From NCBI RefSeq assembly GCF_988243305.1, contig NZ_OZ547136.1: DNA of 64,000 nucleotides, one strand, 5' to 3'. Both the position numbers and the translations under genes were made by a program. The notes under the pieces were generated by a model, which did no database searches, was not told where the DNA came from, and saw only the letters and a program-made list of their open reading frames with translations. Each line of letters opens with the position of its first letter. Positions within the stretch are counted from its first letter, which is position 1. Below, piece after piece: positions 2,505 to 47,261 of this stretch.

Positions 2505-5171
2505 TTATTTGGGATTTGCAGGGATGACTCTGGTCATCCCTTCATCCCGAGTGTAGGTAATAACAATATTATTACCCTGCCAGATCCATCCATCCTGATT
2601 CTGTTTCCCTTCCAGCCAAAGTAACCCATCTTCATCTACTACTTCAGAAAAACTACGTTTCCAGGTGAAGGGTACATTGACGCGATTAAGTGCTAACGCC
2701 TCATACTGCTGTTCATGACTTAGGTCCTCGTAGACCTGGCCATCGAGCAGTTGTTTACCTGAAGACGTTTGTACATAAGGCAATAATGGCAGGCTCATTT
2801 CCCCATCCCTCGTTACCGCAAGAATGGTTTCATCGTTATCCTGCAAGCTATATTCTTCAGCCCACTGCAGAACCTTACGAGCCTTGAACCTTTTTTCACA
2901 CTCGGCGCTTTCAAACTTATCCATGCCTTTGATGACCCATTCTGGCTCATCCATTTCCGCATCATCGTAAATGCTATCCAGCCATTGCCGGTAGGCATCA
3001 GGGAAAAATAAGGATGCTCCATTAAGTTCCTCAATATGTTGCTGCGTCCGCCACATGACTCTAACGTTGCTATAAATATGCTCATGTCGTCCGTAACCTT
3101 CGCCATCAGGCAGCAAAATGGTGGCAAGAGGAATCTCAAAACCAACGGGGCGATATTTACGATGATGGCGATGTAAACGGCCCAATCGTTGGAAAAGCAA
3201 ATCTGCGGGACAATGCTGAGTAATTAACCAATCAAAATCAACGTCGAGTGATTGTTCCACGACCTGTGTGGCAACAAGTATTCTTCCAACATTTCGCTCC
3301 CCATTTTTCCCAAAATTACTAATAACACGATTCTCTTTTTCACGGCGATCGTTCAGCGTAAAGCGCGCATGAAACAAATCTATATCTACTTGCGTGTTAT
3401 TTAGTTCCTTTAACCGTTGGTGGCATAGTTGTGCAACATCAACCAAATTGCAGATAAGACAGACTTGTGCACCCGCATTTGCCGCTGCGATCATTCGCTC
3501 TAACATCGTAAGGTCAGGTAACATGTCAGCTAAATAAATAGGTTCTGGCTGAATCGAAAAGCGGGGCGGGAGTTGTTCTGGATGAGCTAACAGATCAAAA
3601 CGTTGCGCACCATTCACACCTCGCCAGTTAATGAGTGGATATGCGGAGTTATTTTCCTCTGGATCTGTATGCAGACCATAAGTATCCAGAAGTTTCTGTT
3701 TTTGTTTCATTGGTAGAGTTGCGGAAAGAAGAATAACACTCCCCCCCACATCAGCCTGAGCCTTGAGCACAGCCTCCAGCAAGCCGTTCATATACGTGTC
3801 GTAAGCATGAACTTCATCAACAATTAAAACACTTCGACCAATTCCCAAACCACGGATAAAGCGGTGTTTAACTGGCAATACCGATATCAACACCTGATCA
3901 ATCGTGCAAACGCCTATTTGCCCAAGAAACACTTTCTTATTGCTTTGTGACAACCATTGGCAACACTGAACCCACGCTTCTTCTTGCCCCTGCTCAGTAA
4001 ATGCGCGTGATTTTATTGATTGAAAAAGGTGGTTAAAACGTGAATTACCATGAGCAAGAATAAGATTTGGGGAGGTAAATAAACGGCTCGCGTTCGCTTC
4101 CATTCTGCTGAGCATTGCATTTGCAGTAGCTTGTGTAGGGAGGGCAAAAATAACACTATCCGCAAGTTGTTGGTCAATAAGTTTCCAGGCATAGGCCAGC
4201 GCTGTTTCGGTTTTACCTGATCCCGTAGGTGCCTCAATCACCGTCAGCCCGGGAGCTGTAGGAAGAGCATCAACCAACACCTGTAATTGTCTTGGTTGAT
4301 AGCCATTGTCCAGTAAGGCATGTACGCCGTCATAACTACGCTTATTTGATACAAGGCCACTCAACTCAAGTACCCGACACGCATCCTGTTGTCTATCCTG
4401 AAAATATTTTCTTAGCGCTTGTATGCCTGAAGGTGCATCTTCTTTGAATAGAAAGGTATCCGTTGTGGTCCAGGAACCTAACCAGTCAGCAAGCGAGCAA
4501 AAACCTGCTAACAATGATGAACAATCAGGTGGTATATCGTTTATAGATAACCCGGCTGGTGTTAAAAATAATGCTTCGAGTACAGATATCCACTCCTCAC
4601 GAGCCTGTTTATCTTGCGCAGCATAAGATGCCAGAGAAGCTGGCATTTCCCAACGCGACTTATCTTGATCCTGGGAATGTAATATAAAACCATGATGTCC
4701 TGTAACGGCCTCTACCCAAGGAAACCAGGACTCATAAGGATGAGGAGCGGCATCAAAAAAACTGAAAAAATCCCCGGGAGATTGCTCTGAAAGTGAATCC
4801 TGGTTAAACCAATACAGACCGGCTGCACCATGATTAAATTTACGGCACATTTGTGTTGATGGACCATTAAGTGATGGCGTTGCAGGATTTAATTTCAGCC
4901 AACTTTCTGCTGATTTATATTGGAATCGTATATCAAACTTTCCGATATCATGAAGGGCAATGAAAAATAACAGCCAGGCTTTCACCTTCTGTTTTGATAG
5001 CATTTCATTTCGGCAAAAAGCATTTTGTAGTACGACTGATTGATCCCACCAGCAATCTGCAACAGCTGCAACATCCAGGCAATGATAAATCAACAGATGA
5101 ATATCATTTCCTTTCGTCAGGCTTTTTGAGGATTTCCCCCAGTAATGACATATATATTTAAAAGGTTCCAT
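2505..5171 (-). CDS. cas3: Cas3 HD-nuclease/SF2 helicase (888 aa)
   Basis: ORF 888 aa; HD motif (ALHDIGKFD), Walker A (APTGSGKTE) and DEVH box (VDEVHAYD) visible in translation. Confidence 0.95.
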   Translation of the reverse strand: MEPFKYICHYWGKSSKSLTKGNDIHLLIYHCLDVAAVADCWWDQSVVLQNAFCRNEMLSKQKVKAWLLFFIALHDIGKFDIRFQYKSAESWLKLNPATPSLNGPSTQMCRKFNHGAAGLYWFNQDSLSEQSPGDFFSFFDAAPHPYESWFPWVEAVTGHHGFILHSQDQDKSRWEMPASLASYAAQDKQAREEWISVLEALFLTPAGLSINDIPPDCSSLLAGFCSLADWLGSWTTTDTFLFKEDAPSGIQALRKYFQDRQQDACRVLELSGLVSNKRSYDGVHALLDNGYQPRQLQVLVDALPTAPGLTVIEAPTGSGKTETALAYAWKLIDQQLADSVIFALPTQATANAMLSRMEANASRLFTSPNLILAHGNSRFNHLFQSIKSRAFTEQGQEEAWVQCCQWLSQSNKKVFLGQIGVCTIDQVLISVLPVKHRFIRGLGIGRSVLIVDEVHAYDTYMNGLLEAVLKAQADVGGSVILLSATLPMKQKQKLLDTYGLHTDPEENNSAYPLINWRGVNGAQRFDLLAHPEQLPPRFSIQPEPIYLADMLPDLTMLERMIAAANAGAQVCLICNLVDVAQLCHQRLKELNNTQVDIDLFHARFTLNDRREKENRVISNFGKNGERNVGRILVATQVVEQSLDVDFDWLITQHCPADLLFQRLGRLHRHHRKYRPVGFEIPLATILLPDGEGYGRHEHIYSNVRVMWRTQQHIEELNGASLFFPDAYRQWLDSIYDDAEMDEPEWVIKGMDKFESAECEKRFKARKVLQWAEEYSLQDNDETILAVTRDGEMSLPLLPYVQTSSGKQLLDGQVYEDLSHEQQYEALALNRVNVPFTWKRSFSEVVDEDGLLWLEGKQNQDGWIWQGNNIVITYTRDEGMTRVIPANPK

Positions 5172-5470
5172 TAATAGCCTCCCTGTTTTTTTAGTATTAT
5201 CGATGATATCAGTGGACTATTTTTCGATGCTGCTCATAAATATCGAATTACAGTGATATACACATGTCTTGCCTCCCTGCAAAGAAGAGACTAACATTCG
5301 AATTGCTTAGGTTCGAACGCTGGCCTCAGGTTGATAGAAATATCGCCTGGGGCTTTTGTCCATCTGGAACCTCGCGAATGCTTAACGCCAGACAGCCTCA
5401 AGCACCCAACGCCATTCTATACCTGATAATTCTTCCAGCGGCGTTCACGTTTAAAATCAGGAATGCTGCT

Positions 5471-5529: not shown

Positions 5530-6264
5530 TTACCCTTCGTGTAACCCACATTCTCTTTTTAAGCCAAAGAAACGCGTTTCTTCTTCCGCCATGCCGGGTT
5601 CCCATTTACGGGTTGTATGGGTATCACCGACCGATAAATATCCTTCATCCCATAATGGGTGATATTTCAGGCCATGTTTTTGCAGGTACTGATAAATAGT
5701 TCGGTTATCCCAGTCGATAATCGGCAGCACTTTAAATACGCCACGCTGAATTGCCAGCACCGGTAAATTGGCGCGGCTGCCGGATTGTTCACGGCGCAGG
5801 CCAGCAAACCAGGTTTGCGCATTCAGTTCTTTCAGCGCCCGGTTCATCGGTTCGACTTTGTTGATGTCATTGTACTTTTCAATGCCTTCAACGCCCTGCT
5901 CCCATAGTTTACCGTAGCGTGCTTCCTGCCAGGCGGCGCTTTCGGTAGCGCGGTACACTTTCAGGTTGAGCTTGAGTTTGTCCGTTAACTCGTCAATAAA
6001 GCGGTAGGTTTCCGGGAACAAGTAACCCGTATCGGTGAGGATCACTGGAATATCCGGGCGAATCTGATTCACCAGATGCAGGCTCACCGCCGCCTGAATG
6101 CCAAAGCTGGAAGAAAGTACATATTCACCGGGCAGATTATCCAGCGCCCAGGCAACGCGGCCTTCAGCGTCCAGTTTTTCCAGTTCGGCGTTAGTTTCCG
6201 CCAGCGCCAGAATGCGATCTACCTTCGGCAGTTCGTTCAGGGCGTTTAGATCGAGTTTGGACAT
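5530..6264 (-). CDS. cysH: Phosphoadenosine phosphosulfate (PAPS) reductase (244 aa)
   Basis: Internal Met of ORF 5530..6417 gives [23 protein letters not shown]..., 244 aa; the longer ORF start would run through the REP element, so the shorter start is used. Confidence 0.92.
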
Positions 6265-6280
6265 AAGTTCCTCACAGTTT

Positions 6281-6324
6281 GCCTTGCCTGATGCGACGCT
6301 CACGCGTCTTATCAGGCCTACAAG
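6281..6324. repeat. REP (repetitive extragenic palindromic) element between cysI and cysH
   Basis: gccttgcctgatgcgacgctcacgcgtcttatcaggcctacaag: classic REP imperfect palindrome. Confidence 0.6.
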
Positions 6325-6337
6325 ACCGGGCTGATGG

Positions 6338-8050
6338 TTAATCCCACAAATCGCGCGCCGGATCGAGCACCGGGCGAATGATGCCCGCACGCACCGTAAA
6401 GTCGCCGAAGCCTTCACCCGCTTCGCGCTCTTTCGCCCACCGCCCTATCAGTTCATCAAGCGACGCCAGGATTTCCGACTCGGTGATGTTTTCTTTATAC
6501 ATCCGTGGGATACGTGTCCCAATGCGGTTGCCGCCAAGATGCAGGTTGTAGCGACCCGGCGCTTTACCCACCAGGCCCACTTCCGCCAGCATCGCGCGAC
6601 CACAACCGTTCGGGCAGCCTGTTACACGCATCACGATATGCTCATCGCTGACACTATGTTTCGCCATTAAATTATCGATGTTGTCGATAAAAGACGGCAG
6701 GAAACGCTCCGCTTCCGCCATCGCCAGCGGGCAAGTCGGGAATGACACGCAGGCCATTGAGTTTTCACGCTGTGGCGTGACGGCATTCATTAACCCGCTC
6801 TCTTTGGCGATCTTCTCGATCTTCGCTTTCTCGCTTTCCGGTACACCCGCGATGATAAGATTCTGGTTCGCCGTAATGCGGAAATCACCTTTGTGGATCT
6901 TCGCGATCTCCAGCAGGCCAGTTTTCAGCGGACGCCCCGGATAATCAAGGATGCGTCCATTTTCGATAAACAGCGTCAGGTGCCAGTTATCATCAATACC
7001 TTTAACCCAGCCAATACGATCGCCGCGTCCGGTAAACTCATACGGACGAATCGGTTCAAATTTGATCCCCGCGCGACGCTCCACTTCCGCTTTAAACGTC
7101 TCAACCCCCACGCGCTCCAGCGTGTATTTGGTTTTGGCATTTTTACGATCGGTTCGGTTACCCCAGTCACGCTGAGTTGTCACGACGGCTTCCGCCACCG
7201 CCAGCGTATGCTCCAGCGGCAGATAACCAAACTCACTCGCCGTGCGGGCGTAGGTTTTCTTGTTGCCGTGTTCGATGGAAAGCCCACCGCCCACCAGCAG
7301 GTTAAAGCCAACCAGCTTGCCGTTTTCGGCGATTGCCACGAAGTTCATGTCGTTGGCATGCAGATCGATATCGTTCTGCGGCGGGATCACTACCGTGGTT
7401 TTGAATTTACGCGGCAAATAAGTCTGACCGAGGATCGGTTCTTCATCGGTGGTGGCGACTTTTTCCTGATCGAGCCAGATCTCCGCATACGCGCGGGTAC
7501 GTGGCAGCAGATGTTCAGAGATTTTCTTCGCCCATTCATATGCTTCCGCGTGCAACTGCGACTCGTAAGGGTTCGAGGTGCAGAGTACGTTACGGTTCAT
7601 GTCGTTAGCAGTCGCCAGCGCATCAAGACCGACCGAGTGCAGCATCTGGTGCACCGGTTTGACGTTCTTTTTCAGAATGCCGTGGAACTGGAACGTCTGG
7701 CGGTTGGTCAGGCGAATGCTGCCATAAATGGTGTTTTCACCGGCAAATTTATCGATCGCCTGCCACTGTTTGGTGGTGATCACGCCACCCGGCAGACGGC
7801 AGCGCAACAGCATCGCGTGGCGCGGCTCCAGCTTCTGTTCAGCACGTCCGGCGCGAATGTCGCGGTCATCCTGTTGATACATGCCGTGGAAGCGGATCAG
7901 CAGAAAGTTATCGCCCTTAAAGCCGCCGGTCAGACCGTCGTTTAAATCTTCCGCAATGGTGCCGCGCAGGTAGTTGCTTTCAAGCTTCATGCGCTCGGCG
8001 TCTGTCAGTTTTCCTTCGACCACTAAAGGCCCTGGATGTTTTTCGCTCAT
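6338..8050 (-). CDS. cysI: Sulfite reductase hemoprotein beta subunit (570 aa)
   Basis: 570 aa ORF, C-terminal siroheme/4Fe-4S region ([18 protein letters not shown]...TGCPNGCGR); directly downstream of cysJ with 1-bp overlap. Confidence 0.95.
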
Positions 8051-27217: not shown

Positions 27218-28643
27218 TAATGCCGATCAGTTAAGGATCAGTTGACCGATCCAGTGGCTGTGTAAGAATCCGGAAACGCTCACTTGTTTCCGGATTTTTT
27301 TATGCACATTGGACAGGCTCTTGATCTGGTATCCCGTTACGATTCTCTGCGTAACCCACTGACTTCTCTGGGGGATTACCTCGACCCCGAACTCATCTCT
27401 CGTTGCCTTGCCGAATCAGGTACTGTAACGCTACGCAAGCGCCGTCTTCCCCTCGAAATGATGGTCTGGTGTATTGTTGGCATGGCGCTTGAGCGTAAAG
27501 AACCTCTTCACCAGATTGTGAATCGCCTGGACATCATGCTGCCGGGCAATCGCCCCTTCGTTGCCCCCAGTGCCGTTATTCAGGCCCGCCAGCGCCTGGG
27601 AAGTGAGGCTGTCCGCCGCGTGTTCACGAAAACAGCGCAGCTCTGGCATAACGCCACGCCGCATCCGCACTGGTGCGGCCTGACCCTGCTGGCCATCGAT
27701 GGTGTGTTCTGGCGCACACCGGATACACCAGAGAACGATGCAGCCTTCCCCCGCCAGACACATGCCGGGAACCCGGCGCTCTACCCGCAGGTCAAAATGG
27801 TCTGCCAGATGGAACTGACCAGCCATCTGCTGACGGCTGCAGCCTTCGGCACGATGAAGAACAGCGAAAATGAGCTTGCTGAGCAACTTATAGAACAAAC
27901 CGGCGATAACACTCTGACGTTAATGGATAAAGGTTATTACTCACTGGGACTGTTAAATGCCTGGAGCCTGGCGGGAGAACACCGCCACTGGATGATACCT
28001 CTCAGAAAGGGAGCGCAATATGAAGAGATCAGAAAACTGGGTAAAGGCGATCATCTGGTGAAGCTGAAAACCAGCCCGCAGGCACGAAAAAAGTGGCCGG
28101 GACTGGGAAATGAAGTGACAGCCCGCCTGCTGACCGTGACGCGCAAAGGAAAAGTCTGCCATCTGCTGACGTCGATGACGGACGCCATGCGCTTCCCCGG
28201 AGGAGAAATGGCGGATCTGTACAGTCATCGCTGGGAAATCGAACTGGGATACAGGGAGATAAAACAGACGATGCAACTGAGCAGGCTGACGCTGAGAAGT
28301 AAAAAACCGGAGCTTGTGGAGCAAGAGCTGTGGGGTGTCTTACTGGCTTATAATCTGGTGAGATATCAGATGATTAAAATGGCGGAACATCTGAAAGGTT
28401 ACTGGCCGAATCAACTGAGTTTCTCAGAATCATGTGGAATGGTGATGAGAATGCTGATGACATTGCAGGGCGCTTCACCGGGACGTATACCGGAGCTGAT
28501 GCGCGATCTTGCAAGTATGGGACAACTTGTGAAATTACCGACAAGAAGGGAAAGGGCCTTCCCGAGAGTGGTAAAGGAGAGGCCCTGGAAATACCCCACA
28601 GCCCCGAAAAAGAGCCAGTCAGTTGCTTAACTGACTGGCATTA
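27218..28643 (+). mobile_element. Insertion sequence IS4, complete (1426 bp)
   Basis: Imperfect terminal inverted repeats TAATGCCGATCAGTTAAGG (27218-27236) and TAATGCCAGTCAGTTAAGC (reverse complement of 28625-28643); single 442-aa transposase ORF; 1426 bp matches the recalled IS4 size; flanking direct repeats. Confidence 0.9.
27302..28630 (+). CDS. insG: IS4 transposase (442 aa from [14 protein letters not shown])
   Basis: ORF track 27284..28630; recognised as IS4-family transposase sequence. Confidence 0.88.
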
Positions 28644-37098: not shown

Positions 37099-39855
37099 AT
37101 GACCAACTACAGCCTGCGCGCACGCATGATGATTCTGATCCTGGCACCGACCGTCCTTATTGGTTTATTGCTGAGTATCTTTTTCGTTGTGCATCGCTAT
37201 AACGATTTGCAGCGTCAACTGGAAGATGCCGGAGCCAGCATTATTGAGCCGCTTGCAGTTTCTACTGAATATGGCATGAGCCTGCAAAATCGCGAATCTA
37301 TCGGTCAGTTAATAAGCGTACTGCATCGTCGCCATTCCGATATTGTTCGCGCGATTTCGGTTTATGATGAAAATAACCGACTCTTTGTCACCTCCAATTT
37401 TCATCTTGATCCCTCATCAATGCAGCTCGGCAGCAACGTGCCGTTTCCTCGCCAGCTCACTGTCACTCGTGACGGCGATATTATGATCCTCCGCACACCG
37501 ATTATTTCTGAGAGTTACTCCCCCGACGAATCGCCCAGTAGCGATGCCAAAAATAGTCAAAATATGTTGGGATATATTGCGCTTGAGCTGGATCTTAAAT
37601 CGGTTCGCTTGCAGCAATATAAAGAGATCTTTATTTCCAGCGTGATGATGCTGTTTTGTATCGGTATTGCGCTTATTTTTGGCTGGCGCTTAATGCGCGA
37701 TGTAACCGGTCCGATTCGCAATATGGTGAATACCGTCGACCGCATCCGTCGCGGGCAACTCGACAGCCGGGTGGAAGGATTTATGCTCGGCGAGCTGGAT
37801 ATGCTGAAAAACGGTATCAACTCGATGGCAATGTCGCTGGCTGCTTATCACGAAGAGATGCAGCACAATATCGACCAGGCGACGTCCGATCTGCGTGAAA
37901 CGCTGGAGCAGATGGAAATTCAGAACGTTGAGTTGGATCTGGCGAAAAAGCGTGCCCAGGAAGCGGCGCGTATTAAATCCGAGTTTCTGGCAAATATGTC
38001 ACACGAGCTGCGTACACCACTGAATGGTGTTATTGGCTTTACTCGCCTGACGCTGAAAACAGAATTAACACCAACGCAGCGCGATCACCTGAATACGATT
38101 GAACGTTCGGCAAATAATTTGCTGGCAATTATTAATGATGTTCTCGACTTCTCGAAACTGGAAGCAGGTAAGCTGATTCTGGAAAGTATTCCATTCCCAC
38201 TACGCAGCACGCTGGATGAAGTCGTTACCCTGCTGGCACATTCTTCTCACGATAAAGGGCTGGAACTGACGCTCAATATTAAGAGCGACGTGCCCGATAA
38301 CGTAATTGGCGACCCACTGCGATTACAGCAAATCATCACTAACCTGGTAGGGAATGCAATTAAATTCACCGAGAATGGCAACATTGATATTCTGGTAGAA
38401 AAACGTGCGCTGAGTAATACCAAAGTGCAGATTGAAGTGCAGATTCGGGATACCGGCATTGGTATTCCTGAACGCGATCAATCGCGCTTATTCCAGGCCT
38501 TCCGACAGGCTGATGCCAGTATTTCCCGCCGTCATGGTGGCACCGGGCTGGGGCTGGTGATTACACAAAAACTGGTTAATGAAATGGGCGGCGATATTTC
38601 GTTCCATAGCCAGCCGAATCGCGGTTCAACTTTCTGGTTCCACATTAATCTCGATCTGAACCCGAACATTATTATCGAAGGGCCATCCACCCAGTGCCTA
38701 GCCGGCAAGCGCCTGGCCTATGTCGAACCAAACTCCGCAGCAGCGCAATGCACGCTGGATATTTTAAGTGAAACGCCGCTGGAAGTGGTTTATAGCCCAA
38801 CGTTCTCCGCGCTGCCTCCCGCGCATTACGACATGATGTTGTTAGGCATCGCGGTGACCTTCCGCGAGCCGCTAACAATGCAACATGAGCGATTAGCGAA
38901 AGCGGTATCGATGACCGATTTTCTGATGCTGGCACTTCCTTGCCATGCACAAGTCAATGCTGAAAAACTTAAGCAAGATGGTATCGGCGCGTGTCTGCTG
39001 AAACCATTAACACCTACGCGCCTGTTACCTGCCCTGACGGAATTTTGTCATCACAAACAAAACACGCTTTTGCCTGTAACCGATGAAAGTAAGCTGGCAA
39101 TGACAGTCATGGCGGTTGATGACAACCCCGCTAACCTGAAACTTATCGGCGCATTGCTGGAAGATATGGTGCAACATGTGGAACTTTGCGATAGCGGGCA
39201 TCAGGCGGTTGAACGGGCGAAACAAATGCCGTTCGATTTGATCTTAATGGATATTCAAATGCCGGACATGGACGGCATTCGGGCCTGCGAGCTCATCCAC
39301 CAGCTCCCCCATCAGCAACAAACGCCAGTTATCGCGGTAACGGCGCATGCAATGGCCGGGCAAAAAGAGAAGCTGCTTGGCGCAGGGATGAGCGATTATC
39401 TGGCGAAACCGATTGAAGAAGAGCGATTGCATAATTTGTTGTTGCGCTACAAGCCTGGCAGCGGTATTTCCTCTCGCGTCGTGACGCCCGAAGTCAACGA
39501 AATTGTGGTGAACCCGAATGCGACCCTCGACTGGCAACTGGCACTACGCCAGGCAGCAGGAAAAACCGATTTAGCGCGCGATATGCTGCAAATGTTACTC
39601 GATTTCCTGCCTGAAGTTCGCAACAAAGTTGAGGAACAGCTGGTTGGAGAAAACCCGGAAGGCCTGGTTGATTTGATTCATAAACTGCATGGCAGTTGCG
39701 GCTATAGCGGTGTGCCGCGTATGAAGAATCTCTGCCAACTGATCGAACAACAGCTACGTAGCGGTACTAAAGAAGAAGATTTGGAGCCGGAGCTGCTGGA
39801 ACTGTTAGACGAGATGGATAATGTAGCGCGCGAAGCCAGCAAAATTCTCGGGTAA
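37099..39855 (+). CDS. barA: Hybrid sensor histidine kinase BarA (918 aa)
   Basis: 918 aa; TM/HAMP N-terminus, H-box ([11 protein letters not shown]), receiver domain ([14 protein letters not shown]), C-terminal HPt. Confidence 0.95.
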
Positions 39856-40025: not shown

Positions 40026-41366
40026 TTAACGCACCATGCACGGGCGCTTGTTATCAAACGTCCAGCCAGGAATCAGATACTGCATTCCCATCGCATCGTC
40101 TCGCGCACCAAGCCCATGTTTCTGATACAGCTCGTGGGCTTTCATCACCTGATCCATATCGATTTCTACACCCAATCCTGGTTTTTGCGGCACCTGTACC
40201 AGCCCGCCTTTGATCTCAAACGGTTCTTTGGTCAGACGCTGATTGCCTTCCTGCCAGATCCAGTGCGTATCAATAGCAGTAATTTTACCCGGTGCGGCTG
40301 CGGCAACGTGGGTAAACATCGCCAGGGAGATATCGAAGTGGTTGTTAGAGTGTGAACCCCAGGTCAGGCCAAATTCATGGCACATTTGCGCCACACGTAC
40401 CGAACCTTGCATCGTCCAGAAATGCGGATCCGCCAGCGGGATATCAACGGATTGCAGGGAGAGCGTATGGCCCATCTGCCGCCAGTCGGTGGCGATCATA
40501 TTGGTTGCGGTCGGCAGGCCAGTCGCGCGACGGAACTCTGCCATCACTTCACGCCCGGAGAAACCTTGCTCCGCACCACACGGATCTTCTGCATAAGCCA
40601 GCGACCCTTTCAGGTATTTACCAATTTTAATCGCTTCGTTCAGCGACCAGGCACCGTTAGGATCGAGGGTAATACGCGCCTGTGGGAAGCGTTGCGCCAG
40701 TGCCACAATAGATTCTGCTTCTTCTTCTCCGGCCAGTACACCGCCCTTCAGTTTGAAATCGTTGAAGCCATATTTTTCATACGCCGCTTCCGCCAGGCGC
40801 ACCACCGCATCCGGCGTCATCGCTTCTTCGTGACGCAGGCGATACCAGTCACATTTATCATCCGGCTGGCTTTGATACGGCAGCGGTGTGGCTTTGCGAT
40901 TACCGACGAAGAACAGATAACCGAGCATTTCGACTTCGCTACGCTGTTGACCATCGCCCAGCAGCGATGCCACGTTAACCCCCAGATGCTGCCCCAGCAG
41001 ATCCAGCATTGCCGCTTCTATCCCGGTAACCACATGAATAGTGGTCCGCAAATCAAATGTCTGCAAACCGCGCCCGCCGGCATCACGATCGGCAAATGTA
41101 TTACGCACCAGCGTCAGAACGTTTTTGTATTCACCCAGCGTTTTACCCACCACCAGCGGAATCGCATCTTCCAGCGTTTTACGGATTTTCTCGCCGCCGG
41201 GAATTTCCCCTACGCCGGTGTGACCAGAATTATCTTTGATAATCACAATATTACGCGTGAAGAACGGTGCGTGTGCACCACTCAGATTCATCAGCATACT
41301 GTCATGGCCCGCCACCGGGATGACCTGCATTTCAGTAACAACAGGCGTCGTAAATTGAGAACTCAT
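40026..41366 (-). CDS. gudD: Glucarate dehydratase (446 aa)
   Basis: Enolase-superfamily member, start taken at [25 protein letters not shown]. Confidence 0.92.
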
Positions 41367-41386
41367 ATTTATGTCCTTTTTCAAAA

Positions 41387-42727
41387 TCAATGACGGCCGA
41401 AAACGGGACGTTTACGGTCATAGGTCCAGCCGGGGATCAGGTACTGCATCGGGCCCGCGTCGTTACGCGCACCGCCAGGCAGACGTTTATAGGCCTCATG
41501 CGCCTTTTGTACCTGCTCCCAGTCCAGTTCCACGCCCAGACCGGGCGCATCAGGAACGGCAATTTTTCCGTTTTTAATCTCCAGCGGATTTTTGGTCAGG
41601 CGACAATCTCCCTCCTGCCAAATCCAGTGGGTATCGATAGCGGTAGGATTACCCGGTGCCGCCGCACCCACATGGGTAAACATCGCCAGAGAGATATCGA
41701 AGTGATTATTGGAATGGCAGCCCCAGGTCAGCCCCCAGTCGTCGCAAAGCTGCGCCACGCGGACTGCACCGGAAAGCGTCCAGAAATGCGGATCGGCAAG
41801 TGGAATATCCACCGCATTGAGCATTACCGCATGGCCCATTTCGCGCCAGTTGGTGGCAATCATGTTGGTCGCGACGGGCAGGCCGGTCGCCCGTCGAAAC
41901 TCCGCCATCACTTCACGACCGGAGAAACCCTGCTCAGCGCCGCATGGATCTTCAGCATAGGTGAGAACATCATTCAGCCCTTTGCACAGAGAAATTGCTT
42001 CATCAAGCAGCCATGCACCGTTGGGATCAACGGTAATCCGCGCATCCGGGAAGCGTTTCTTCAATGCACGAACAGTGTCGATTTCTTGCTCGCCAGGTAA
42101 CACGCCGCCCTTAAGTTTGAAATCTTTAAAGCCGTAGCGATCCTGTGAGGCTTCCGCCAGACGCACAACGGCTTCGCTGTTCATCGCTTTCTGATGGCGC
42201 AACTGATACCACTCATGGTTGCCCGGCGTATTTTCCAGATAAGGAAGATCGGTTTTGGTCCGATCACCGATATAAAACAGATAACCGAGGACGGTAATAG
42301 CCTCGCGTTGCTTGCCTGGCCCCAACAGTTCGCAGACCGGAACATTCAGCGCCTTACCTAGCAGGTCAAGCAAGGCGGCTTCCAGCGCCGCCACGGCATT
42401 AACGCGCAATTCAAAAGTCCAGGCACCTTTGCCGAAGGTATCAAAATCGGCTGCCTGATTACCTTTATGCACCTGCTGAACCACTTTATTCAGGCGCGCA
42501 ACTTCCTGGCCCAACACCATCGGAATAGCATCGACCAGTGTCTGATAAATCACCTCTCCGCCTGGCGCTTCACCAATGCCGGTATGCCCGGCGTTATCGG
42601 TGAGTACCACAATATTGCGAGTGAAATATGCGTTATGCGCCCCACCAATATTAAGCAACATGCTATCGTGCCCGGCGACCGGAATGACTTTCATATCAGT
42701 AATAACAGGACTGGATTGTGTCGTCAT
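41387..42727 (-). CDS. gudX: Glucarate dehydratase-related protein (446 aa), paralog of gudD
   Basis: [24 protein letters not shown]..., highly similar to the downstream gudD product. Confidence 0.92.
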
Positions 42728-42728
42728 C

Positions 42729-44081
42729 TTATTGCCCCGCGACAGGTTTCAGCTCGATACGCTTGATATCGCCCACCAGCACCAGGTAGCTCAGTACCGC
42801 GATTAAGGCATGAACACCAACATAAATCAGCGCCCCATTAAACGAGCCAGTCGTGCCAACGATATAACCAATTGCGATTGGCGTGACGATGCCAGAAATG
42901 TTACCGAACATGTTGAACAGGCCACCGGAAAGACCGCTGATCTCTTTTGGCGCGGTATCTGCCATTACTGCCCAACCCAGCGCCCCGATGCCCTTACCGA
43001 AGAAGGCCAGCGCCATAAAGCCGATGATCATCCACTCAACGTTGACGTAGTTGCAGAACACCATCACCATCGACAGCAACATGCCCATTACGATCGGTGT
43101 TTTACGCGCAATGTTCAGCGATCCCGTGCGGCGCATCAGCCAGTCGGAAATAATCCCACCCAGCACACCGCCGATAAAACCGCAAACCGCCGGAACGGAA
43201 GCCACAAAGCCCGCTTTCAGAATCGACATCCCGCGTGCCTGCACCAGATAAACCGGGAACCAGGTAATAAAGAAGTAAGTCAGGGCGTTGATACAGTACT
43301 GACCGATATAAACGCCGATCATCATCCGTGACCCGAGCAGCTGTTTGATCTGCCCCCACTTCACACTGAACGGTACTTTAACTTTGGTGTTTTGCTGATC
43401 CATATTGATCAGCGCGCCACCCGCGGCGATATACTCCAGCTCTTTCTGATTTACCCCCGGATGTTGATTTGGCTCGTGGATGACTTTCAACCAGATAAAG
43501 CTGATGACAATGCCCAGACCGCCCATAAAGAAGAAGACGTGTGACCAGCCCACTTCATGCGTCAGCCAGCCCATAATCGGCGCGAAGATCACCGTTGCGA
43601 AGTATTGAGCGGAGTTAAAAATCGACACCGCCGTTCCCCTTTCCTGCGCCGGAAACCAGGCCGCTACAATGCGACTGTTACCGGGGAAAGATGGCGCTTC
43701 AGCAAGCCCGACCAGGAAGCGCAGCGTAAACAGGGCAACGATAATGCCGAATCCACTAAAAATATCGACGAAGCCTTGCAGCAAGGTAAACATCGACCAG
43801 ATAAAGATCGACCAGAAGTAGACGCGTTTTGAACCAAAACGGTCCAGCAACCAGCCACCAGGGATCTGCCCGATAACATAAGCCCATGAGAAAGCAGAGA
43901 ACACATAGCCCATTCCCACAGGATCAAGGCCGATATCTTTGGCCATTTCCGAACCGGCGATAGAGAGCGTAGCGCGGTCGCCGTAGTTGAAGGATGTGAC
44001 GATAAACAACATCACCACTATCCAGTAACGAGCATTCGTGCGTTTTTCCACACTGCTCGCAGCCTGACTTAAAGAACTCAT
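42729..44081 (-). CDS. gudP: Glucarate/galactarate MFS transporter (450 aa)
   Basis: 450 aa hydrophobic MFS ORF heading the gudPXD operon. Confidence 0.92.
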
Positions 44082-44982: not shown

Positions 44983-45765
44983 TTAGGAACTTATCTCTCC
45001 ATCCTGACCCGATGGCGCACTGAACTCAACCCTTTCATTTTCAGGAAGCAGACCCCGCCAGCCAAATTGTGATAACGCCTGCATCCAGGTGTCGTCCAGG
45101 CCCGCGTGAATAGTCAGCGGCTCGCCAGTAAAAGGATGCGTCAATGACAACTGACTGGCATGCAACATTAACCGCTGAAGGCCAAAATGTTCAGCACCGC
45201 TGCGATTCTGGCGTAAATCACCATGTTTGCTGTCGCCAATAATCGGGTGGCGCAAATGGGCAAGATGGCGACGGAGCTGGTGCTTACGTCCGGTTTTCGG
45301 CTCCAGTTCCACCAGGCCGTAGCGCGTGGTCGGGTAACGTCCGGTCGCTACCGGCATTTCTACGGTCGCCAGACCGCGATAATGCGTCACTGCTGGCTGT
45401 GGGCCTTTATCTTCGCGGGCAAATTTATCAGCGATTTTGTCCAGTTCTTCCACCAGTGGATAATCCAGAACTGCTTCTTCCATCAACCAGCCGCGCACAA
45501 TCGCATGGTAACGTTTCTGGATTTGGTGCTGCTCAAACTGTTGTGCCAGCAGCCGTCCGGCCTCGCTGGATAATCCCATCAACAACACACCAGAAGTTGG
45601 TCGGTCCAGACGATGAGCAGTAAACACATGCTGGCCTATCTGGTCACGCACGGTTTGCATGACCACTACTTTCTCGTCGCGATCCAGCCAGCTGCGGTGA
45701 ACCAGCCAGCCGGAGGGTTTATTTACCGCAACCAGCCATTCATCCTGATAGAGTATTTCCAGCAT
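44983..45765 (-). CDS. truC: tRNA pseudouridine(65) synthase (260 aa)
   Basis: RluA-family catalytic motif ([13 protein letters not shown]). Confidence 0.9.
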
Positions 45766-46094
45766 TAGCTCGCATCATCCGCAAAAAGAGCATCCAGTTT
45801 TTCCAGCTCAGCCAGAATAAGCGCGCGTTGCGGGTAGTCCGTCGCCAGCGCCATTTCATAATAGGGTGCAACGGCAAAAGCGCCCGGTAACGGCTGGTTG
45901 TTATCTAACAAATCGTGCATTCGCGGAATAAGCACCCACTGCAACCACTCCAGTGGTTCCATGGTGTCCATAAAGAACGGTTGGGTACTGTTAAATTGAT
46001 GCGGCTGGGGTTCATCGTTTCGCCAGTGCTGATGTTCACGCAGTAACGCTTCAAGCGCCTGCAACTGGAGACGAACGCGGTCATGAGTGGTCAT
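45765..46094 (-). CDS. yqcC: DUF446-family protein (109 aa)
   Basis: 109 aa ORF overlapping truC start by 1 bp. Confidence 0.85.
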   Translation of the reverse strand: MTTHDRVRLQLQALEALLREHQHWRNDEPQPHQFNSTQPFFMDTMEPLEWLQWVLIPRMHDLLDNNQPLPGAFAVAPYYEMALATDYPQRALILAELEKLDALFADDAS

Positions 46095-46140
46095 AAAGCA
46101 ACCTCAATAAGAAAAACTGCCGCGAAGGATAGCAGGAATA

Positions 46141-46505
46141 AAAAAAGGGAGCACTGTATTCACAGTGCTCCCGGTTCGTTTCGCAGCATTCCAGCTACTT
46201 TTGTTGCTCCCTGCTCATCCTTGACAACTTTTCCTCTGGCCTTGCGGCCAATCGTTCATCCTGAACTATTGCTTCCTGCTCACACCACCCCGATGTGATA
46301 CTTCATCCTGAAGTGTCCCTGGCCTTCCTGACCCACCGAATCATCCTGACCGGTTCTCATTCTCCATCCTGGAGGTGTCCTTTAACGCGTCCTGCGTCAT
46401 CCTCTTCGCTTCATCCAGAAGCCTTTCCCTGAAACACCATCCTGGTGTGTCCTTCAGAAGTGTCATCATCCTGATGTTCACTTCGTTGTCTGACTCCCTG
46501 TCGAC
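46141..46505 (-). ncRNA. csrB: CsrB small RNA (CsrA-sequestering), about 365 nt
   Basis: Minus strand begins GUCGACAGGGAGUCAGACAACGAAG... and carries about 18 CAGGA(U/A)G-type GGA motifs (plus-strand catcctg/ttcctg/tccctg); ends in terminator hairpin gggagcactg-tattca-cagtgctccc plus U-run. Confidence 0.85.
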
Positions 46506-46678
46506 GAAGATAGAATCGTCTTTTTCGCGAAGTCTTACAAGGCGCTTACAGACAATGCCTTAAGGAAAATTTCATATGAAAGTTAAGAATTGACAAGCAA
46601 TATATTGATTTTAAATGAAAATAACGATTCTTATCTTTTTAAGTATTCGCTTATTTCCTGGCGATCTCCTACAGAGTC

Positions 46679-46696
46679 TGTAAGAGATCTCTCACA
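46679..46696. promoter_or_regulatory. 18-bp perfect palindrome TGTAAGAGATCTCTCACA, UvrY response-regulator binding site upstream of csrB
   Basis: Perfect inverted repeat centred about 182 bp upstream of the inferred csrB 5-prime end, between syd stop and the csrB promoter. Confidence 0.6.
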
Positions 46697-46715
46697 ACCA
46701 GATGGGGTATTTGGA

Positions 46716-47261
46716 TTACAGAAGAGGCTTAAGTTGATTAAGGAATTCCGCAAGATTTGAGGCTAAATGCGTCCGTTTACGTGTTCCCAGCGTCTCTTTG
46801 CACACTTCACCGGAGAGATTACACACCGAGATGACCTCTAACTCTTCTTCCAGCGTCGCGATAAATAGCGTGGGCGGCAATTTTAGCCTTTTCTGAGTCA
46901 CCAGATGACCAATCAGATTTTCCTGCACCCGACGGAAGTCGTCTTCACTCCAGGTTTGCAGCAATGTCAGTTTGATATCGCCAAACTGCGCGTGCATATC
47001 CCCGGCAAACTGAGTCGTATAAAAGGTATGAATTGTGGGTTGTATCACAAGATCAAAAGCGCGTTCAACCGCGTTTACATTTTGTTCCCCGGTAAACGGC
47101 TGGGGTTGCCAGTATACGGCATCTTCGGTGGTTGAAATAATGCACGGTGAAGGAACGCCGTACAGTTCCTCACTCAACGGCCAGCTTTTATGCTCTTCAT
47201 GCCACGCATCGCAGTAGCGTGCAGTAAAATCTTTCAGGGCTTGTGCGGTCAAATCGTCCAC
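46716..47261 (-). CDS. syd: SecY-interacting protein Syd (181 aa)
   Basis: 181 aa [26 protein letters not shown].... Confidence 0.9.

Follow-up and report, generated by a model that had tools for sequence, protein, structure and literature searches.

The csrB small RNA gene of Escherichia coli and its published control region between yqcC and syd

In the 64-kb stretch of DNA that was analysed (the window), the interval between the yqcC and syd genes was almost certainly the csrB gene of Escherichia coli together with its complete published control region. This locus is already known and well studied, and its regulatory architecture was as published. A first-pass annotation, made from the sequence alone, had placed a minus-strand RNA gene between yqcC and syd and named it csrB. 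The K-12 genome carries an annotated csrB gene of 369 nt at this place, and the Rfam covariance model for CsrB, which had been named as the test able to overturn the assignment, matched over its full length with 382.9 bits. The features of the locus are collected in Table 1.

Table 1. Features of the csrB locus and its gene neighbourhood in the window (positions with a sign are relative to the csrB transcript start).
Feature	Coordinates	Strand	Basis
barA, sensor kinase phosphorylating UvrY	37099-39855	+	NCBIfam NF008318 equivalog
Glucarate dehydratase gene, between barA and csrB	40026-41390		
Glucarate dehydratase-related protein gene, below the cut-off of that model	41387-42727		
MFS transporter gene, D-galactonate transporter subfamily	42729-44081		
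yqcC, downstream flanking gene	45765-46094	-	ORF; RefSeq YqcC family protein on identical DNA
csrB sRNA gene, 369 nt, +1 at 46505	46137-46505	-	Rfam RF00018; gap-free K-12 alignment
Intrinsic terminator: stem-loop 46172-46147 (GGGAGCACTGT GAAT ACAGTGCTCCC), then T7 at 46146-46140	46140-46172	-	Terminator scan
3' decay determinant: GGA sites 20 and 21 and unstructured RNase E cleavage segment	46175-46210	-	Sequence positions; function from PMC5027483
Probable core promoter: -35 TTGTAA (46540-46535), 17-nt spacer, -10 GATTCT (46517-46512)	46512-46540	-	K-12 +1; conservation
Perfect 12-bp palindrome TTTCATATGAAA, -76 to -65; membership in the control region uncertain	46570-46581		Sequence
Putative IHF site AATCAATATATTG, -105 to -93, fits WATCAANNNNTTR	46598-46610	-	Pattern match
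Extra UvrY half-site TGTAGGAGA, -168 to -160, 5 bp downstream of the repeat	46665-46673	-	Sequence; PMC4682653
UvrY-P site, 18-nt near-perfect inverted repeat TGTGAGAGATCTCTTACA, -191 to -174	46679-46696	-	Identity to footprinted K-12 site
syd, upstream flanking gene	46716-47261	-	NCBIfam SecY-interacting protein, 285.8 bits; RefSeq annotation

Identity of the gene and properties of its RNA

When the whole window was scanned with Rfam 15, two matches exceeded the threshold, one of which was CsrB (RF00018; 46137-46496 on the minus strand, E = 2.2e-111, gathering threshold 71). The match covered model positions 1-356 of 356, was not truncated, and had posterior probabilities of about 1.0 throughout. 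As a full-length score above the curated threshold, it placed the RNA in the RF00018 family, and the position between yqcC and syd together with a length of about 369 nt identified the gene as the csrB orthologue rather than csrC. All three genes of the locus were on the minus strand; the yqcC ORF started at 46094, and the syd stop codon (46716-46718) was located 20 bp before the inverted repeat. The 621-bp intergenic interval could be aligned without gaps to that of K-12 MG1655 and differed from it by six substitutions (-99, -96, -92, -87, +52, and +340), which left the inverted repeat and every GGA intact. Since the alignment was free of gaps, the equivalent transcript in the window ran from 46505 (+1) to 46137. 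The length of roughly 365 nt proposed in the first-pass annotation was near the K-12-equivalent 369 nt, with the interval 46141-46505 ending inside the terminal T-run.

The 801 bp from 46000 to 46800 matched several E. coli chromosomes at 100% identity, and among 5,426 complete E. coli genomes 5,425 carried this region, so that the window was assigned to the chromosome of E. coli. In the RefSeq (PGAP) records with identical DNA the csrB interval carried no annotation. Therefore, recovering csrB and its activator site directly from the letters exceeded what the standard pipeline provides. The practical value was one of annotation only, with csrB left unmarked by the automated RefSeq pipeline. 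The discovery value was small, since CsrB, its CsrA-binding repeats, its UvrY/IHF promoter, and its decay are well-characterised E. coli biology.

The transcript contained 22 GGA triplets in 369 nt, whereas its antisense strand had 2 and a stretch of this length held 5.2 on average across the window; no other spot in the 64 kb was as dense in GGA. The literature figure for the GGA sites of CsrB is likewise 22 (PMC5027483). The motif count suggested earlier for the minus-strand transcript was carried out and also yielded 14 AGGA and 8 exact CAGGA[U/A]G, the latter compared with 0.24 +/- 0.49 (maximum 3) in dinucleotide-preserving shuffles. When 7-mers were scored against CAGGA(U/A/C)G, 9 were exact, 12 matched at 6 or more of the 7 positions, and 16 at 5 or more. 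The figure of about 18 motifs in the first-pass annotation was fair as a count of CAGGAUG-like repeats and too low as a GGA total.

The RNA was predicted to fold at -119.9 kcal/mol (z = -4.3 against shuffles). In the minimum-free-energy structure 9 GGA were wholly inside hairpin loops, and the mean unpaired probability was 0.81 for GGA triplets and 0.44 for the whole RNA; numerous GGA, mostly in loops or single-stranded stretches, are what characterises the RF00018 family. The GGA-rich segment terminated in GGGAGCACTGTGAATACAGTGCTCCCTTTTTTTATT, and the strong terminator that had been claimed for it was found to be a rho-independent one with an 11-bp stem (7 G-C pairs), a 4-nt loop, and T7. RNase E has been reported to cut CsrB at A327 and A331, immediately before the terminator, and CsrA on GGA sites 20 and 21 to shield the RNA from this cleavage (Vakulskas et al. 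2016, PMC5027483). Both A residues were intact here (46179 and 46175), and the two GGA sites were found at +296 (46210-46208) and +314 (46192-46190).

For comparison across genera, GTDB was scanned with one genome per species using a csrB-internal 21-mer, so that the upstream palindrome was not presupposed. This yielded 32 loci, 29 of which were csrB. Among these, 28 belonged to Enterobacterales (Escherichia, Citrobacter, Trabulsiella, Yokenella, Pluralibacter, Kosakonia, Phytobacter, Mangrovibacter, Buttiauxella, Shimwellia, Tenebrionibacter, Pseudenterobacter, Pantoea, and other Enterobacteriaceae); the 29th (L033) was a 797-nt chimera-like contig labelled Phyllobacterium and was discarded. 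Two further loci, from an Anaerolineae MAG and from Bathyarchaeota, had neither a CsrB match nor syntenic genes and were discarded as chance matches to the 21-mer. The yqcC-csrB-syd synteny was seen in 26 of the 29 csrB loci, and the flanks of the other three were cut too short on one side or, as in L033, contained no gene. An RNAalifold consensus of 20 sequences had 67 predicted pairs, 18 of which kept pairing through changes on both sides; examples from stems presenting GGA loops were GC:11/AU:8 and GC:10/AU:8. The number of GGA was 20-28 in sequences 70-84% identical to the window. All 11 terminator stem pairs were kept in the 20 genera-spanning sequences, 2 of them via changes on both sides. 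The 3' third of CsrB, from AGGAAAAGUUGUCAAGGAUGAGCAGGGAGCA to the terminator, was nearly invariant across genera, which matches the published CsrD/RNase E decay determinant in this part of the RNA.

Two other identities of the RNA were considered. One was CsrC, the paralogous sponge, or another Csr/Rsm member; CsrC shares with CsrB the clan CL00106, the logic of GGA repeats, and upstream UvrY sites. However, clan competition kept CsrB over 356 positions, and the RNA was 99% identical to K-12 csrB and occupied the yqcC-syd locus with 369 nt, whereas csrC has 246 nt, lies between yihA and yihI, and has the degenerate repeat TGTGAGACATTGCCGATA. Synteny, length, and sequence identity thus all refuted CsrC, and the probability left for any such clan member is negligible. 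That the GGA-rich stretch was a compositional or coding artefact, such as a small protein gene or a purine-rich repeat, deserves practically no credence either. Eight short ORFs of 22-71 aa overlapped the interval (none was above 71 aa), and the second-highest GGA density of the window (16 per 369 nt, plus strand, about 27.9 kb) belonged to coding sequence only, as it was located inside the ORF of an IS4-family transposase and was rejected as an RNA sponge. On the other hand, the enrichment in the csrB interval was strand-specific and extended to a specific 7-mer, the hairpin stems covaried with the loop GGAs kept, the GGA number was maintained in diverged sequences, and the covariance-model score was overwhelming.

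The control region upstream of csrB

It has previously been reported that an 18-nt "nearly perfect" palindrome is centred at -183/-182 of csrB (Zere et al. 2015, PMC4682653). In K-12, ChIP-exo showed that UvrY crosslinked to this repeat in vivo and that the crosslinking depended on barA, and only phosphorylated UvrY protected the repeat from DNase I (PMC4682653). In the window the 18-mer read TGTAAGAGATCTCTCACA on the plus strand and TGTGAGAGATCTCTTACA on the transcript strand. A mismatch between the two at positions 4 and 15 left the sequence 16/18 self-complementary, so that the first-pass description of it as perfect had to be corrected to the "nearly perfect" of the literature (PMC4682653); perfect dyad symmetry is not a requirement of the family. 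The distance of about 182 bp to the 5' end held, with the centre of the repeat 182.5 bp upstream of +1 (46505), where the distal site is expected. The 18-mer was its own only match in the window at up to 3 mismatches (0.05 expected). It was identical to the K-12 site at 18 of 18 positions, and it had the form TGTRAG-N6-CTYACA of a UvrY/SirA (GacA-type) activator site. A partial copy of the repeat, TGTAGGAGA, has been described 5 bp downstream of it (PMC4682653). This half-site followed the repeat at the same 5-bp spacing in 21 of 23 loci. Its usual form was TGTGAGAGATCGCC, which repeats the whole left arm in direct orientation and was the second element in most genera. The comparison with the csrC upstream region that had been suggested was also made, and it returned the weaker site TGTGAGACATTGCCGATA (12/18), as published (PMC4682653).

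A putative IHF site is situated between the distal repeat and the csrB promoter, and without IHF neither UvrY binding nor csrB expression reaches its full level (PMC4682653). AATCAATATATTG probably corresponds to the putative IHF site of Zere et al., and its core was conserved across genera as TCA-N5-TTR. Four substitutions relative to K-12 clustered at -99 to -87, in and beside this putative site and at non-consensus positions. The 13-bp patch from -99 to -87, which held 4 of the 6 K-12 differences, was hypervariable among Escherichia sequences that were otherwise 96-99% identical.

The hexamers of the core promoter were placed at TTGTAA and GATTCT on the basis of the K-12 start and of cross-genus conservation, and this placement is probable. 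A generic sigma-70 promoter scan of 46000-46800 gave no site; it was silent on the csrB promoter because the -10 hexamer matched the consensus at just 3 of 6 positions. Both the weak -10 hexamer and its being missed by the scan fit an activator-dependent promoter.

Conservation was expressed as the mean fraction of 18 lineages sharing the commonest base, with a background of 0.65 over -215 to -1. By this measure the inverted repeat reached 0.99 and was nearly invariant across about 15 genera, followed by the extended -35 block cTTGTAAGAC (0.91), the -10 block GATTCTA (0.88), and the second UvrY element (0.87); the transcript start GTCGACAGGGAG was conserved too. The spacer between the repeat and +1 was largely unalignable between genera. 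Nevertheless, the distance from the centre of the repeat to +1 was 180.5-183.5 bp in 23 loci and exactly 182.5 bp in 14 of them. A repeat-promoter distance held within +/-1.5 bp across about 15 genera fits the expectation of a fixed IHF-looping geometry. This constancy of the activator-promoter distance despite divergence of the spacer was a small quantitative addition to what is known.

Two elements of the control region were left over. The palindrome TTTCATATGAAA was kept in Escherichia, Citrobacter, Trabulsiella, and Pluralibacter and partly elsewhere. Its conservation of 0.71 was barely over the background, and therefore we did not claim a function for it; a literature search for the string gave no csrB paper among the matches listed, as judged by title. 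The other element concerned the promoter-proximal region from -56 to +25, where UvrY crosslinking without a recognisable repeat has been reported (Zere et al., PMC4682653). Within this region, the conserved block cTTGTAAGAC overlapped the -35 hexamer and contained TGTAAGAC, a 7/9 match to the repeat arm TGTAAGAGA. It is conceivable, if rather unlikely, that the control region holds extra cis-elements of this kind, namely a UvrY half-site overlapping the -35 hexamer and lying behind the proximal crosslink, and TTTCATATGAAA as an operator for a further csrB regulator. A pair of direct TGTAAG half-sites at -45 and -34 was considered as the cause of the proximal crosslink and was demoted to a low-probability lead. 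The -45 copy was conserved in Escherichia and Citrobacter only (0.55), and overlap with the -35 hexamer could account for the conservation of the -34 copy. Moreover, csrC shows the same proximal UvrY crosslink as csrB (PMC4682653). The upstream sequence of K-12 csrC used in the comparison had no TGTAAG near its -35, and the only copy was far upstream, beside the distal repeat, which weakened the idea of a proximal half-site.

Linkage to barA and the gene neighbourhood

The placement of barA at 37099-39855 by the first-pass annotation was supported by a full-length equivalog match of its product to NF008318 (1623.9 bits against a cut-off of 890, residues 1-917 of 918). From the barA stop to the csrB 3' end there were 6,281 bp, for which the earlier 7 kb was a reasonable round figure, and from the barA start to the csrB +1 there were 9,406 bp. 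After the two glucarate dehydratase-type genes and the MFS transporter gene came yqcA, truC, and yqcC, and then csrB. The physical linkage of barA and csrB that had been pointed out was real and conserved, as each of the 8 related loci that reached far enough to be checked had barA on the downstream side of csrB, in a sample almost exclusively from Enterobacteriaceae. The order queF/syd/csrB/yqcC/truC/yqcA was invariant in the related loci. In E. albertii, Pluralibacter, and Yokenella barA directly followed yqcA, and elsewhere it came after the gud block.

Upstream of csrB, the 18-mer could primarily be a terminator or 3' stabilising hairpin of syd rather than an activator site, as it directly followed syd in the same orientation and an inverted repeat could form an RNA hairpin. 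However, its arms abutted without a loop, the stem was short and A/U-rich with one G-U pair, the repeat was followed by GACUCUGUAGG without a U-run, and the terminator scan gave no call there. Binding of UvrY-P is shown by the published DNase I footprint and ChIP-exo (PMC4682653), and a terminator would have no need for a distance to the csrB +1 held within +/-1.5 bp across genera. The terminator function is thus very improbable, and the activator site remained the preferred reading. Downstream, the proximity of barA and csrB could reflect selected functional clustering of the circuit rather than inherited gene order. The proximity recurred in all 8 loci with sufficient flank, and in E. albertii, Pluralibacter, and Yokenella no more than about 1.7 kb separated barA from the search anchor (csrB +281). 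However, the neighbourhood of rlmD, barA, yqcA, truC, yqcC, csrB, syd, and queF was wholly syntenic in close relatives, so that the linkage needs no special explanation; the variable gud insert indicated that the spacing of barA and csrB was not constrained; csrA was absent from the window, and in K-12 more than 1 Mb separates csrC from this locus. Functional clustering was therefore judged unlikely. Conserved synteny was the simpler reading of the linkage, and we saw no evidence for more than inherited order.

Proposed mechanism and comparison with known systems

Every cis-element required by the published model was present and conserved. The mechanism that we infer from near-identity is the published BarA-UvrY/IHF to CsrB to CsrA model. 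BarA, encoded 6.3 kb off, would phosphorylate UvrY, and UvrY-P would bind the 18-nt near-palindrome and the adjacent half-site. IHF near -100 would bend the DNA so that the distal activator could act on the weak sigma-70 promoter. The resulting 369-nt CsrB with its 22 GGA would bind many CsrA dimers and titrate CsrA from its mRNA targets; this CsrB is expected to bind CsrA as has been published for K-12 CsrB, to which it is 99% identical. Turnover would start with RNase E at A327/A331, in the unstructured segment upstream of the terminator, where CsrA at GGA sites 20 and 21 may block RNase E until CsrD/EIIA-Glc relieves the block.

The closest known system was K-12 csrB (b4408), which had the same yqcC-csrB-syd locus, length of 369 nt, 22 GGA, terminator, and 3' decay segment. 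The two RNAs were identical at 367 of 369 positions. The +52 C>A difference turned CAGGAC into AAGGAC with the GGA kept, and +340 G>A turned a G-U pair of the terminator stem into A-U. The differences from K-12 csrB were allelic variation only, and identical alleles were present in several sequenced E. coli genomes. The published UvrY/SirA site of csrB (PMC4682653), with the same TGTGAGAGATCTCTTACA centred at -182.5, the half-site TGTAGGAGA, and the putative IHF site, showed no difference here. Likewise, csrC encodes a CsrA sponge that is activated by UvrY-P from a distal site, in this case one starting with TGTGAGA. However, K-12 csrC differs in its length of 246 nt, in its location between yihA and yihI, in its degenerate repeat TGTGAGACATTGCCGATA (12/18), a weaker UvrY site as published (PMC4682653), and in being IHF-independent.

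Sequence elements upstream of csrB

The csrB promoter region carried two TGTAAG half-sites in direct orientation, where the expectation for 210 bp is about 0.07 occurrences. Of the two, the proximal one formed part of the -35 block TTGTAAGAC, which is strongly conserved, and the distal one was kept only in Escherichia and Citrobacter. Moreover, both half-sites were enclosed by the promoter-proximal region of UvrY crosslinking (Zere et al. 2015, PMC4682653).

Further upstream, we found the perfect 12-bp palindrome TTTCATATGAAA, which was kept in Escherichia, Citrobacter, Trabulsiella and Pluralibacter and was partial elsewhere. Its conservation, expressed as the mean fraction of 18 lineages sharing the commonest base, was 0.71 vs 0.65 for the background (-215 to -1), and the palindrome was not found in the csrB papers of the searchable literature. 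Of the six substitutions that the alignment with K-12 showed, four fell in a variable patch of 13 bp, which lay partly in the putative IHF site and partly directly downstream of it. This patch was hypervariable across Escherichia sequences that were 96-99% identical elsewhere, and its length was kept. The consensus positions of the putative IHF core were unaffected by these substitutions.

The UvrY inverted repeat and its adjoining half-site each contained a GATC (Dam methylation) site. These two sites were 23 bp apart, and both were retained in most genera; the central one was missing in Mangrovibacter (GATATC) and Trabulsiella (ACATCT).

Coordinates of the features in the window (csrB positions are relative to its +1)
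Feature	Position	Strand	Remark
sok antitoxin RNA (RF01794)	5251-5407	-	Rfam match, 104.3 bits vs threshold 59
IS4-family transposase ORF	27284-28630	+	NCBIfam, 304.4 bits
gud (glucarate) block	40026-44081		separates barA from yqcA
Two direct TGTAAG half-sites	46534-46550		csrB -45 to -29; 11 bp apart
Perfect 12-bp palindrome	46570-46581		csrB -76 to -65; between putative IHF site and promoter
Variable patch	46592-46604		csrB -99 to -87
GATC site	46663-46666		in half-site adjoining UvrY inverted repeat
GATC site	46686-46689		exact centre of UvrY inverted repeat

Gene neighbourhood of csrB in related loci

The gud block was missing in E. albertii, Pluralibacter and Yokenella (loci L005, L016 and L027), where barA directly adjoined yqcA; the other genera compared had the block, in versions of varying content. 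Thus, it behaved as an insertion/deletion cassette in an otherwise fixed gene order. Additionally, GcvB (RF00022) is a further conserved sRNA gene in this neighbourhood. Two related loci had a match to it (10740-10947 of L007 and 446-652 of L010), at a distance of about 9-10 kb from csrB on its upstream side, towards syd and queF.

Other features of the window

The sok match was placed in the gap between cas3 (2505-5171, minus strand) and the next long ORF (5530-6417, minus strand). The neighbouring ORFs seen were fragments of 26-42 aa, and none was an intact one of Hok size (about 50 aa), so this region looked like a decayed chromosomal hok/sok locus. The transposase ORF contained the second-highest GGA density of the window (16 per 369 nt); an RNA sponge at this peak was considered and rejected, the density being an effect of coding composition.

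csrB in database records

In a record whose DNA was 100% identical to the window (NZ_CP031609.1, locus 1096-1716), the RefSeq/PGAP annotation gave only yqcC and syd and left csrB unmarked, unlike the curated K-12 record, where csrB was annotated. A different case was a contig of 797 nt from a Phyllobacterium myrsinacearum assembly (NZ_PVBT01000018.1), which appeared to be either contamination or a chimera assembled from abundant E. coli small RNAs. It contained a 6S RNA match (246-429) directly followed by an E. coli-like CsrB (474-797, 96% identical). In E. coli the 6S RNA and CsrB genes are not adjacent.
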